Positions 13,367 through 16,821 of a stretch of DNA of 64,000 nucleotides are shown here, piece by piece. The notes under the pieces are model-generated. The model was not told the DNA's origin, did not search any database, and was given only the letters and a program-made list of their open reading frames with translations. The translations under genes were made by a program, and so were the position numbers. The DNA is from a virus: IMG/VR virus record IMGVR_UViG_3300045521_000059. One strand, given 5' to 3'. How positions within the stretch are numbered: position 1 is the stretch's first letter; every line of letters begins with the position of its first letter.

Positions 13367-13456
13367 TCGAACTGACCAAATCGAACCAACTAATGCTGAT
13401 TGATTGTTTCATTACTATTCCATATTTTGAAGCATGAAAACTACGAGTTTGAGCTT

Positions 13457-14272
13457 ATGACTAAAAGAACCGAAGAAGACGGCCGTTTATTCCCATCCAT
13501 TAAGTGGGATCACGGATGGTCATTATCGATCCAGGCCGACAAGTACGGATATCAATGTAGCCCAAAACGAAAACTGGATACATTGGAGGATTACGAAACC
13601 GTCGAGGTAAAAATAGACGGGCCGCATGGCACTTACGTTGATCCACACACAATGCAGCTATTACCACATGTATTGGATAAGTTCCCAAAACTTACAAGTG
13701 ACAGCGGACCTTCCATCGGCGGAAATCTCACTTGGGACGATGTTGATGTCGTCAAACAAGCAATCTTGCTGGCCTCCCTCAGCCCGAATGACGGAGTTCC
13801 TTCAGGAGCAATTGGATGGTCGTGTAGGGAAGTTTATCACGGGACATCGAATGAAAATGCGGAAGACATCCTGAATTACGGTATCAAACCATCTATTGGA
13901 ACAGGCTATTTTGGACGCGCATTTTATGTGGCTGACGATGTGGAACTGGCAATCTCAAACTATGCGGAATTTTCAGATGACGAAAATGGTGGAGCCGTTA
14001 TCGTCACCACAATCAAAGAAGGGGCCTTGATACTCGACTTGAGAAATCATAAGGACAATCAAAAATGGATAGAAAGCGGGCTAGTGTCTATCATCGGTAG
14101 AGACGATTTCGATCTGCAGGCCCGAAAGAGAGGAATCGATGGCGTTTATGATCGATCAGTCGGAGGATTAGCCATTTTTAATGCAGCAATTCTAACGAAA
14201 CCACATCTCATAAATAATACTGCATCCAGCGATGTTGAGATCGACGCCAACAGTCCGGAAATAAAAATGTAA
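13457..14272 (+). CDS. two-domain protein with C-terminal PARP-like ADP-ribosyltransferase motif
   Basis: VYHGTS...ILNYGI...GTGYFGRAFYVADD (H-Y ART signature). Confidence 0.6.
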   Translation: MTKRTEEDGRLFPSIKWDHGWSLSIQADKYGYQCSPKRKLDTLEDYETVEVKIDGPHGTYVDPHTMQLLPHVLDKFPKLTSDSGPSIGGNLTWDDVDVVKQAILLASLSPNDGVPSGAIGWSCREVYHGTSNENAEDILNYGIKPSIGTGYFGRAFYVADDVELAISNYAEFSDDENGGAVIVTTIKEGALILDLRNHKDNQKWIESGLVSIIGRDDFDLQARKRGIDGVYDRSVGGLAIFNAAILTKPHLINNTASSDVEIDANSPEIKM

Positions 14273-14343: not shown

Positions 14344-14436
14344 ATGTTTATTCAGTCATCCCAACAGCAATCAAGACAATCGAGTTCATCAAGCTCGAAT
14401 GCGTTGATGTGCGCGGTGACTGACCTAAATATCTGA
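14344..14436 (+). CDS. leader peptide 2 (30 aa; Ser/Gln run) MFIQSSQQQSRQSSSSSSNALMCAVTDLNI
   Basis: GGAG RBS; 14 of codons 4-18 are Ser or Gln; not in the ORF track. Confidence 0.82.
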   Translation: MFIQSSQQQSRQSSSSSSNALMCAVTDLNI

Positions 14437-14463
14437 CCTCCATATCAGATCAAAAGGTTTCAG

Positions 14464-14488
14464 AACCCGCCTAAAAGGCGGGTTTTTT
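14464..14488 (+). terminator. attenuator terminator upstream of array 2
   Basis: AACCCGCC-TAAAA-GGCGGGTT-TTTT, ending 6 nt before the first tRNA. Confidence 0.9.
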
Positions 14489-14494
14489 ATGTGT

Positions 14495-14586
14495 GGAAAC
14501 ATGGCTGAGAGGCTTAAAGCAGCGGTTTGCTAAACCGTCAGGGAGGTAAAATGCCCTCGGGAGTTCGAATCTCCCTGTTTCCGCCA
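14495..14586 (+). tRNA. tRNA-Ser(GCT)
   Basis: GCGGT-TTGCTAA-ACCGT; long variable arm; G73-CCA. Confidence 0.95.
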
Positions 14587-14628
14587 CGAATTCGAATTTC
14601 CTATCCGTAGGGAGTTCAAAAATAATAC

Positions 14629-14718
14629 GGAAAGGTGGCCGAGTGGTTGATGGCTCTGGTCTTGAAAACCAGCGTGCGGGAAACCGTACCGTGGGTTCGA
14701 ATCCCACCCTTTCCGCCA
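14629..14718 (+). tRNA. tRNA-Ser(TGA)
   Basis: CTGGT-CTTGAAA-ACCAG; CCA. Confidence 0.95.
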
Positions 14719-14753
14719 ATATATTGAGTTTGTTTATTTATGGGAGATGGGCC

Positions 14754-14957
14754 ATGACAGTACATGAATTAAATGCTCCGGCTGATGTCGTAGAAGCAAC
14801 TGTCATGGCCCTAGTAAAAACCCATAATAACAAGGCTCAGCAAGCAAAAGAACGATCTGCCTTACGCGGATGGTTCGTCGGTCAGACGATGAAGAAGCTT
14901 AACGGTGCAGTAAGTCGTCACGTAGTGCAAGAAGCAGTATTTAAAGCGCTGCAATAA
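14754..14957 (+). CDS. stand-alone GatB C-terminal/YqeY-like domain (67 aa)
   Basis: LRGWFVGQTMKKLNG matches the GatB tail motif GFFVGQVMK; GGGAG RBS. Confidence 0.65.
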   Translation: MTVHELNAPADVVEATVMALVKTHNNKAQQAKERSALRGWFVGQTMKKLNGAVSRHVVQEAVFKALQ

Positions 14958-14992
14958 TTATAGGAGATAATGGCTATAATAGCCAAATAATT

Positions 14993-15082
14993 GGAAAGAT
15001 GGCAGAGCCAGGTTGAATGCACTCGCCTCGAAAGCGAGCAAGCCGAAAGGCTTCGAGAGTTCAAATCTCTCTCTTTCCGCCA
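14993..15082 (+). tRNA. tRNA-Ser(CGA)
   Basis: CTCGC-CTCGAAA-GCGAG; CCA. Confidence 0.95.
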
Positions 15083-15088
15083 GAATAC

Positions 15089-15162
15089 TGGGGATTAGTT
15101 TAAAGGTAGAACAGCGGACTCTGAATCCGTTAGTCTTGGTTCGAATCCAGGATGCCCAGCCA
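15089..15162 (+). tRNA. tRNA-Gln(CTG)
   Basis: GCGGA-CTCTGAA-TCCGT; U1-A72; CCA. Confidence 0.93.
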
Positions 15163-15179
15163 GAATTTAAAAAATATAC

Positions 15180-15254
15180 TGGGACGTCGCCAAGCGGTAA
15201 GGCATCGGTTTTTGGTACCGACATTCGGAGGTTCGAATCCTCCCGTCCCAGCCA
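15180..15254 (+). tRNA. tRNA-Gln(TTG)
   Basis: TCGGT-TTTTGGT-ACCGA; CCA. Confidence 0.95.
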
Positions 15255-15280
15255 TGTTTTAAAAAAAATGCAATGAATAC

Positions 15281-15368
15281 GGAACCGTGGCAGAGTGGTC
15301 TAATGCACTCGCTTGGAAAGCGAGCAGGCCGAAAGGTCTCAGAAGTTCGAATCTTCTCGGTTCCGCCA
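15281..15368 (+). tRNA. tRNA-Ser(GGA)
   Basis: CTCGC-TTGGAAA-GCGAG; CCA. Confidence 0.95.
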
Positions 15369-15393
15369 GAAATAAACATAGAGGACCAACCAA

Positions 15394-15633
15394 ATGAGCA
15401 ATATGCCAATCAATATCAAAGAACACATTACTGCAGGCCCGTGCAAATTAGTTTGCGCGCGAGCAGATAATCTTTGGTATAAAACTGCTCTTGGCTTTGA
15501 ATTCCCTGTGCCGTTTTCTGATATGGGCGACGCCACGTTTGAGGCAGAAGAAAAAGGCATGATGCTTATGCGCTATATTAGAAAACACAACGAATTAATC
15601 ACAGCTGCGCGACAACAACAAAACGTCGCATAA
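15394..15633 (+). CDS. small phage-type hypothetical protein inside array 2, ending QQQNVA
   Basis: GAGGA RBS; LWYKT..GFEFPVP.SD.GDATF...MRYIRKH pattern recalled from phage proteins. Confidence 0.7.
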   Translation: MSNMPINIKEHITAGPCKLVCARADNLWYKTALGFEFPVPFSDMGDATFEAEEKGMMLMRYIRKHNELITAARQQQNVA

Positions 15634-15636
15634 GCA

Positions 15637-15660
15637 GTTGTCTAATCACCATTAGACGAC
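15637..15660 (+). other. hairpin whose 3' arm is complementary to the D arm of the next tRNA
   Basis: GTTGTCTAAT-CACC-ATTAGACGAC; 15649-15660 is the exact reverse complement of 15675-15686. Confidence 0.7.
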
Positions 15661-15668
15661 TAAAACCT

Positions 15669-15743
15669 TGCCGGGTCGTCTAATGGTAGGACATGAGCCT
15701 TTGAAGTTACATAATGCGCGTTCGAGTCGCGCCCCGGCATCCA
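15669..15743 (+). tRNA. tRNA-Gln(TTG)-like, bulged anticodon stem, U73
   Basis: TGCCGGG/CCCGGCA; loop CTTTGAA; T-arm GCGCG-TTCGAGT-CGCGC; CCA. Confidence 0.8.
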
Positions 15744-15780
15744 CTTTCAGGTTTAGAGTTTCGAAATCCGATCATCACTG

Positions 15781-16821
15781 TCATCTCCTGCCCTCATCGA
15801 CAACACCAAGTGACATCCTTTCAAAGAAATTAGTCGTCATATCCTGGAATGCCTGTTTCTCGTAATCACCATATGCGAGCAGAAAAGCAGTCGAGAATGC
15901 CTTTAAGACTTCGAATAATTTTTTCTCAGTAGGATTGGATCTGGCGACCTGTCCAGAAAATGAATTAGCACTACCGTTTTTGAGCAACCCAATATGCTTA
16001 TATCCAGGTTTGGATAATTTGTAGGATTTCGCCTTCTCGGTATAAGGCTGCCCTGTAAAATCATCCTCCCGCTCTGCTAACAAATAGAGCAAGGGTGCAT
16101 TTATATCTGCCCAGGAATTTTCATCTAAACCCATAACTCCTGGACCCTGCGGTGACATCAGTATGCCCGCAAAAAAACGAGGTTCAGTAAAAGTACGGCG
16201 CTTATTATCACCATCTCTCACGGAAGCACCAAGCAACATCTGGGCTACATAAGCACCGTAGCCGTGACCCACAATAATAGGACGTTCAACATTAACAGTT
16301 TGACCGATAGCATCTTCGACAAGTTTTACGTCATCAAGAACACTAACACACGCTTCTGCTCTCTCTTGCCATGCAACAGGATCTTCCAGCAATGCTGAGA
16401 TGTTCCATTCAGAATAGCTGTTTACCGACGTTTTCCTCAATGACGGACCATTTTCAATAATTGAATCACGATGAAGCGGGGCGACAACGACAAAACCATG
16501 GCTAGCCCAGTGCCAAAGAAGATCACGGTAAGCAAGCGGCTCAGCCACAGCCCCATGACTAAAAACAATCAAACGGGGATTTGGATGGTTACGTGGAAAG
16601 AAGACCATGTAATCAAATCCACGACCTTTCACCGTCGTTGGTGAAGCCGAAAAAACGAATGGACCTTGAGTTGCATACCTGGCATATCTCGGGTCGACAC
16701 CTGGAATATGCTCTCTAATAATCAAAGGTGAGTTTTCAGCATCTTGCGCAAGTGAGGTCGAAGTTAGTAAGCATGCAGCAGCGCCAATTAAAAAGGAACG
16801 TCTGTATTTATTGCACATCAA
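15781..16821 (-). CDS. Tat-exported alpha/beta-hydrolase-fold protein with Gly at the nucleophile position
   Basis: RRSFL Tat signal; VFSHG oxyanion motif; WASHGFVVVAPLH; GHGYGA in place of GHSxG. Confidence 0.75.
   Translation of the reverse strand: MMCNKYRRSFLIGAAACLLTSTSLAQDAENSPLIIREHIPGVDPRYARYATQGPFVFSASPTTVKGRGFDYMVFFPRNHPNPRLIVFSHGAVAEPLAYRDLLWHWASHGFVVVAPLHRDSIIENGPSLRKTSVNSYSEWNISALLEDPVAWQERAEACVSVLDDVKLVEDAIGQTVNVERPIIVGHGYGAYVAQMLLGASVRDGDNKRRTFTEPRFFAGILMSPQGPGVMGLDENSWADINAPLLYLLAEREDDFTGQPYTEKAKSYKLSKPGYKHIGLLKNGSANSFSGQVARSNPTEKKLFEVLKAFSTAFLLAYGDYEKQAFQDMTTNFFERMSLGVVDEGRR

Follow-up and report, generated by a model that had tools for sequence, protein, structure and literature searches.

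The window, by which we mean the whole 64,000-nt stretch of DNA analyzed here, has a G+C content of ∼43% and carries 22 tRNA genes, arranged in three blocks of 9, 7, and 6 across 41 kb. Tran et al. 2016 (PMC4758250) defined a tRNA array unit as a single block with 20 or more tRNA genes and a density of 2 or more per kb. The operon considered here comprises seven tRNA genes, all for Ser or Gln, with two small ORFs interspersed among them. Its last tRNA gene, a tRNA-Gln(UUG), follows a 79-aa ORF and a short leader that contains a hairpin (Table 1). A Ser/Gln-rich leader peptide ORF and a clean intrinsic terminator head the same operon, so this element seems to employ translation-coupled control at other sites too, as the sequence at the operon head suggests. 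Just 5′ of the array promoter and leader lies a 290-aa ORF with a match to the PARP catalytic domain (Pfam E value 3.5e-6; 13400–14272, + strand).

Table 1. Features of the Ser/Gln tRNA operon and of the leader of its terminal tRNA-Gln(UUG) gene (window coordinates)
Feature	Position	Strand	Source	Remark
Promoter-like TTGACA	14291			Operon start
Ser/Gln-rich leader peptide ORF	14344–14436	+	Sequence features	30 codons, MFIQSSQQQSRQSSSSSSNALMCAVTDLNI
Intrinsic terminator	14462–14486	+		Clean; directly ahead of the first tRNA of the operon
Seven tRNA genes	14495–15743	+	ARAGORN	Ser-GCU, Ser-UGA, Ser-CGA, Gln-CUG, Gln-UUG, Ser-GGA, second Gln-UUG
Shine–Dalgarno-like AGAGGA	15380–15385	+		Of the 79-aa ORF
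79-aa ORF	15394–15633	+	ORF list	Doubles as putative leader ORF of the switch
Putative sensor codons CGA CAA CAA CAA	15610–15621	+		Arg-Gln-Gln-Gln; CAA ×3 at 15613–15621
Stop codon TAA	15631–15633	+		2–3 nt 5′ of the hairpin base
Segment 1 (hairpin 5′ arm)	15636–15646	+		10-bp stem 15637–15646; mimic of tRNA positions 7–16
Hairpin loop CACC	15647–15650	+
Segment 2 (loop end and hairpin 3′ arm)	15648–15661	+		Anti-tRNA strand; alternative partners are segment 1 or tRNA positions 6–19
Hairpin 3′ arm	15651–15660	+
Spacer	15662–15668	+		Separates segment 2 from the RNase P site at the tRNA 5′ end; sequence differs between subclades
tRNA-Gln(UUG)	15669–15743	+	ARAGORN; Rfam	Encoded CCA; U1–A72 pair
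Segment 3	15674–15687	+		tRNA positions 6–19

The downstream gene, described in the original prediction as tRNA-Gln(TTG)-like, is a tRNA-Gln(UUG): ARAGORN calls it, and it belongs to the Rfam tRNA family (RF00005) with a score of 48.9 bits against a cut-off of 29. All elements of that prediction were located within 1–2 nt of where it placed them. The 10-bp hairpin that it described just past the stop codon occupies 15636–15661, with 10 bp including one G·U pair, or 11 bp when A15636–U15661 is counted, and a folding energy of −11.8 kcal/mol. From the loop end through the 3′ arm, nucleotides 15648–15660 form a perfect (100%) 13-nt complement of 15675–15687, that is, of tRNA positions 7–19, and a G·U pair between 15661 and 15674 extends this leader:tRNA helix to 14 bp. 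The prediction had named a 12-nt complement to the D arm. The complement is indeed exact, at 13 nt, but its target is the 5′ strand of the acceptor and D stems (core positions 5–12) rather than strictly the D arm. Because the 3′ arm of the hairpin is complementary to the tRNA strand, the 5′ arm is a near copy of that strand (GTTGTCTAAT vs. GTCGTCTAAT). Unlike an intrinsic terminator or a plain 3′ stabilizer, the hairpin is not self-contained: its 3′ arm has a second partner in the tRNA, conserved and covarying.

Complementarity of this length is unusual. None of 500 shuffled leaders reached a 13-nt complement, and across the 428 tRNAs in every locus fetched, leader and tRNA typically share a longest complement of 5–6 nt; beyond this clade, 12 nt or more was seen in a single case, an unrelated metagenome-assembled genome (MAG) from Patescibacteria. 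The same clade, together with its syntenic relatives, supplies the duplex-energy outliers among the fetched loci. A 7-nt complement between 15607–15613 and the T arm (15726–15732) was discarded, as it is not conserved in a related locus (L121). In the MAG locus (L003, 2590–2742), a tRNA-Gln(UUG) of the same type is preceded by a mimic/anti-tRNA leader made of a degenerate repeat of the tRNA 5′ end (2590–2608) and a 13-nt inverted copy (2637–2649); this leader lies 3′ of a TATAAT box, has no ORF, and is an independent case.

We searched the leader for known classes of regulatory element. A simple scan of 15600–15760 found neither a promoter nor a terminator, so the intrinsic terminator that serves as the regulated structure of an attenuator is missing from this interval. 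UUUU(U) follows the hairpin in one subclade only, and the alternative helix between segments 2 and 3 has no U-tract. The leader matched neither the T-box nor any other Rfam cis-regulator; an E-value-mode Rfam scan of 14400–15900 returned tRNA hits and subthreshold chance matches, with nothing at 15600–15668.

The 79-aa ORF ends in CGA CAA CAA CAA, followed by AAC GTC GCA and the stop TAA, and thus has the three consecutive CAA codons that the original prediction claimed for its tail. CAA is decoded by tRNA-Gln(UUG). The larger ORFs of the window hold no other QQQ (0 in 14,142 residues), and CAA accounts for 50% of the Gln codons in its genes.

To place these elements in a wider context, we compared the locus with its syntenic relatives, which are metagenomic as well as genomic and include one genome labeled Mesorhizobium sp. 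SP-1A. Nine syntenic lineages of the Ser/Gln tRNA array keep the layout of a Gln run, a hairpin adjoining the stop codon, and an anti-tRNA 3′ arm. The hairpin begins 0–4 nt after the stop in all nine, with energies of −10 to −19 kcal/mol, and the first Gln codon lies 17–24 nt 5′ of it. The window clade consists of seven sequences in two subclades. Four further relatives (L174, L176, L179, and L189; 62–72% protein identity) have wholly different hairpin sequences in the same place, 0–3 nt after the stop. Run codons are CAA in 16 of the 20 cases from seven lineages, and the downstream tRNA is always UUG; L188, L193, and all seven sequences of the window clade share CGA CAA CAA CAA unchanged at the nucleotide level. 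In three lineages (L188, L193/L194, and L178) the 79-aa gene lies ahead of a tRNA-Ser and no longer carries the Q run. Directly 5′ of the terminal tRNA-Gln(UUG), each of these has instead a predicted mini-ORF of 13–23 codons that keeps RQQQ (L188, MTSMFILLTADAISARQQQPEIL; L193/L194, MISMIMIVFADFISARQQQGI; L178, MTFNVQPQRQQQS). Where each mini-ORF ends there is a hairpin with a 3′ arm complementary to the tRNA of that lineage. The regulatory codon run expected of an attenuator leader is thus present in the candidate leader ORFs, as CGA CAA CAA CAA in the window and as RQQQ in the mini-ORFs of L188, L193, and L178.

Scanning metagenomes yielded one more close relative (L180), and a gapped-pattern scan returned the genome of L121 and no viral contigs. 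Searching for exact matches to the 5′ half of the tRNA turned up mostly unrelated phyla with the same type of tRNA-Gln, which served as background only, and a plasmid megablast match was limited to a tRNA-sized piece. In another close relative (L173, 1–2331), a PRTase-CE/wHTH gene and a reverse transcriptase, resembling a retron-like defense pair, stand in place of the upstream Ser and Gln tRNAs, and the module of a 78-aa ORF, hairpin, and tRNA-Gln is retained. A long GC-rich hairpin without a U-tract (GGGGGACCG...CGGTCCCCC) lies between tRNA-Ser(UGA) and the putative RQQQ mini-ORF in both L188 (3489–3541) and L193 (3488–3532) and is conserved in the two.

We then modeled folding by computing partition functions over the RNA that begins with the stop codon and ends with CCA, mimicking a terminating ribosome by holding the stop codon and 10 nt single-stranded; the model leaves aside pseudoknots, tertiary structure, modification, and kinetics. 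With the leader of the window free, the hairpin and the cloverleaf are predicted together; with the 5′ arm covered, the acceptor stem is lost. The probability of the acceptor stem with a free leader is 0.84 in the window and 0.66–0.97 in L174, L176, L178, L179, L188, and L193 (7 of 11 sequences, counting the window), and on masking it drops to 0.00–0.05 in all 11. The two states of the original prediction are thereby reproduced: masking flips the ensemble between two mutually exclusive pairings (1:2 vs. 2:3), so that in silico the position of the ribosome chooses between them, as in an attenuator. Measured against shuffled unmasked leaders, the loss is specific in the AT-rich lineages (window, 0/150; L174, 0.027; L121, 0.047; L188, 0.073) and not in the GC-rich leaders of L176, L193, L178, and L179, where shuffles often disrupt the cloverleaf too. 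In L172, L121, L171, and L189 the anti-tRNA state dominates even without masking. Kinetics must therefore matter, and in these relatives the hairpin could act only as a kinetic trap, because it is transcribed first. In principle, the leader:tRNA helix and the acceptor stem could also coexist as a pseudoknot, which RNase P might still cut.

The nine-lineage layout, the retained RQQQ mini-ORFs, and the two-state folding together support the translation-coupled folding switch that had been proposed for this locus. We consider it somewhat likely that an RNA folding switch dependent on the leader ORF sets the matured amount of the operon’s last tRNA, tRNA-Gln(UUG). Three segments of the transcript would compete: the 5′-arm mimic (segment 1), the anti-tRNA strand (segment 2), and tRNA positions about 3–19 (segment 3). 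When the CAA run is read at normal speed, the lead ribosome would reach the stop codon and, judging from the known ribosome footprint, cover or unwind segment 1. The freed segment 2 would capture segment 3 as the tRNA emerges and block the acceptor and D stems, and the captured precursor would be matured late or not at all. When CAA decoding is slow, a ribosome held 17–24 nt 5′ of the hairpin would let segments 1 and 2 pair; with the hairpin closed, the tRNA would fold and be cut by RNase P. We infer here the coupling of ribosome and transcription, the sign of the control, and the fate of the misfolded RNA. The net effect would be negative feedback on CAA-decoding capacity. Since nine related lineages keep the layout, the bacteria that carry it probably tune their output of tRNA-Gln(UUG) to the speed at which ribosomes read CAA.

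The genomic setting offers a rationale for such sensing. In the Mesorhizobium-labeled genome of L121 (G001), 92 tRNA hits were found, with ∼45 lying together within ∼130 kb of a single contig (C2, about 935–1066 kb) and the others scattered. Given this clustering and the G+C content of the window, the arrays look like an accessory, nearly complete second set of tRNAs on AT-rich foreign DNA, a set that would give the element a reason to sense CAA decoding. This AT-rich accessory element resides in a rhizobial host, and its use of CAA far exceeds what would be expected of a GC-rich host. The window itself probably comes from an ant-associated bacterium. Its interval 15280–15790 is present at full length in 24 ant-metagenome runs, 6 of which are metatranscriptomic libraries; contigs from the RNA libraries span the locus evenly over both strands, a coverage that is uninformative on transcription or processing.

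A less likely reading, although one to be taken seriously, keeps the hairpin and its pairing with the tRNA as functional but makes them independent of translation. The hairpin would then shield the 3′ end of the upstream mRNA once RNase P has cut; the 2:3 pairing would govern when or in what order processing occurs, or would serve as a folding checkpoint for this tRNA; and the Gln run would be incidental. A position right after the stop codon is the usual place of a 3′ stabilizer, and after the RNase P cut the hairpin would lie 2–9 nt from the mRNA 3′ end. The Patescibacteria leader, with a promoter and no ORF, fits this reading as well, as does the frequency of Gln in the C-terminal tails of the 79-aa family in general, even where no tRNA-Gln follows. 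What it leaves unexplained is that putative RQQQ mini-ORFs with start codons are kept exactly before the hairpin after the gene has moved away, that the run is biased toward CAA, and that the distance from run to hairpin is constant at 17–24 nt.

The hairpin might also be a neutral by-product, a 3′-UTR structure built or repaired from the neighboring tRNA sequence, for example by template switching, with tRNA folding and RNase P winning in vivo. Segment 1 nearly duplicates the 5′ strand of the adjoining tRNA, segment 2 repeats that strand in inverted form, and the shuffle control is weak in GC-rich lineages. The window clade shows no covariation, because no tRNA position within the helix varies there. 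We judge this explanation improbable, however, from the pattern of substitutions across lineages. The leader:tRNA pairs were tabulated by tRNA position, since the MAFFT alignment of the leaders was out of pairing register. The leader pairs with tRNA positions 9–12 in 11 of 11 sequences and with positions 5–12 in most. The pair at position 7 is G–C, A–U, or U·G and that at position 12 is C–G or U–A, and at positions 6, 8, 11, and 13 the pairs switch between Watson–Crick and G·U. Pairing thus follows the lineage-specific changes of the tRNA at positions 7 and 12 and at the wobble sites across nine lineages, which are few in number and partly related to one another. Cognate leader:tRNA duplexes are also more stable, at a mean of −22.7 kcal/mol, than those between permuted partners (−19.8 ± 1.2 kcal/mol; P = 0.0076). 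Within the window clade, the anti-tRNA stretch CATTAGACGAC is invariant in both subclades despite differences at ∼70% of positions in the loop and spacer, and other tRNAs of the same arrays have no comparable leader complement. The original prediction had allowed that the complementarity might be a nonconserved local duplication; we find instead that both the QQQ tail and the complementarity recur in nine lineages with different sequences, joined by compensatory and wobble changes.

The many G·U pairs argue for pairing at the RNA level, on the sense strand. Weighing against the proposed switch, the perfect Watson–Crick complement in L174 and L176 is only 5 nt long, and pairing there depends on G·U pairs and one mismatch. 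That the perfect 13-bp inverted repeat with its 14-bp spacer, at the tRNA gene that ends the array and next to DNA that varies among relatives on the tRNA’s 3′ side, is a recombinase or transcription-factor site or an integration relic is very improbable, since the helices elsewhere need G·U pairs that are noncomplementary in DNA or on the opposite strand, the spacer varies in length and sequence, and the repeat uses the 5′ part of the tRNA, whereas integration sites at tRNA genes normally use the 3′ part.

The translation-dependent folding switch would combine features of several known systems. Like the amino acid leader attenuators (trpL, hisL, pheL, leuL, thrL, and ilv), it would have a translated ORF with a cognate codon run, the position of the ribosome would select 1:2 or 2:3 pairing, and a cis-acting RNA would suffice. 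Unlike them, the tRNA-Gln leader has no intrinsic terminator, the third segment is the body of the tRNA, and the output would be tRNA folding and maturation rather than read-through. The codon run, moreover, lies 5′ of segment 1 and not within it, and in the window the “leader” is the gene of a conserved 79-aa protein. Translation attenuation of ermC and cat shares with the proposed switch a ribosome on a leader ORF that remodels a downstream hairpin posttranscriptionally and without a terminator; there, a drug-induced stall exposes a ribosome-binding site, whereas here slow CAA decoding is proposed and the target would be a tRNA. Within the same operon, the Ser/Gln leader and terminator (14344–14486) follow a shared logic, in that leader codons match the following tRNAs; that type of leader would gate the whole array through its terminator, whereas the tRNA-Gln(UUG) leader is intraoperonic, lacks a terminator, and pairs with a single tRNA.

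That a leader can gate tRNA maturation is feasible in vivo, given a synthetic theophylline-responsive RNase P riboswitch in which an alternative structure within the 5′ leader of a pre-tRNA determines both RNase P processing and the output of tRNA (Ender et al. 2021, PMC7897497). That device is engineered, driven by a ligand, and sequesters the single-stranded leader, whereas the tRNA-Gln leader is natural, would be driven by the ribosome, and would sequester the tRNA’s own 5′ strand. As the natural counterpart of the engineered riboswitch, the self-contained module of ∼135 nt could serve as a codon-speed sensor.

The prevailing view is that bacterial tRNA genes are regulated at their promoters, through growth rate and stringent control, and no individual tRNA is known to sense its own decoding capacity. 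We regard as evenly poised the broader claim that this is a natural ribosome-gated tRNA maturation switch, in which a tRNA autoregulates its own folding and processing without a terminator, protein, or ligand. In the searchable literature, of which our coverage was incomplete, we found no natural case of leader-ORF control of tRNA maturation. If true, this would be the first natural cis-regulatory RNA with tRNA misfolding as its output, and ribosome-mediated attenuation would gain a new output, namely how a tRNA precursor folds. The module would, in addition, show a foreign AT-rich element tuning the supply of a tRNA for AT-ending codons in a GC-rich host.

We also examined the protein encoded by the putative leader ORF. 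The 79-aa ORF is a real gene, with 50 homologues at 39–97% identity, the core motifs NLWY, FEFPVP, and MRYIRKH, and a match to phrog_20427 (E value 8.9e-22). Jumbo phages, XacN1 and RsoM2USA among them, carry members of the family, as do 127 viral contigs. About 14 of the 50 bacterial loci are located in tRNA arrays, and 54 of the 80 viral loci kept (L196–L275) have tRNA genes within 1.5 kb. A confident AlphaFold2 (AF2) model (pLDDT 90.7) shows a small β structure and a C-terminal helix (residues 55–78), on the variable end of which the Q run lies. Foldseek gave no hit, and the fold searches returned weak S1/OB-like rows alone (Z ≤ 3.6). From this model and the genomic neighborhoods, the family may be a tRNA- or RNA-binding accessory protein.

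The proposed switch is not a property of this protein family, since neither a codon match nor anti-tRNA leaders were found family-wide. In other bacterial arrays and in 21 phage loci, the ORF lies next to tRNAs for Met, Val, Asn, Ile, Pro, Ser, Leu, and others, and where a viral homologue directly precedes a tRNA, that tRNA is tRNA-Gln in 5 of 21 loci. A family-wide rule by which the C-terminal codons match the next tRNA was rejected, because other bacterial arrays and the 21 phage loci show no codon match; leader:tRNA complementarity was likewise absent from the five longer phage leaders tested.

Two further observations concern the tRNA and its neighbors. Among relatives, the acceptor, T, and anticodon stems of the tRNA-Gln(UUG) have undergone compensatory changes. 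Throughout the window clade, the base of its anticodon stem has the nonstandard pairs 27:43 (U·C) and 28:42 (G·A). A 6-bp stem in which A42 is bulged fits tRNA positions 26–45 (15694–15713) of this clade as an alternative, with 26:45 covarying (A–U vs. C–G), and the anticodon stem is canonical in more distant lineages. The Ser/Gln array also encodes a 67-aa stand-alone GatB/YqeY tail-domain protein (14754–14957, + strand; Pfam E value 1.6e-6; NCBIfam GatB C terminus), and in jumbo phage XacN1 (L190, 3133–3576) the 79-aa homologue and an ORF with the annotation glutamyl-tRNA amidotransferase are three genes apart. The 67-aa and 79-aa proteins may act jointly on tRNA-Gln.
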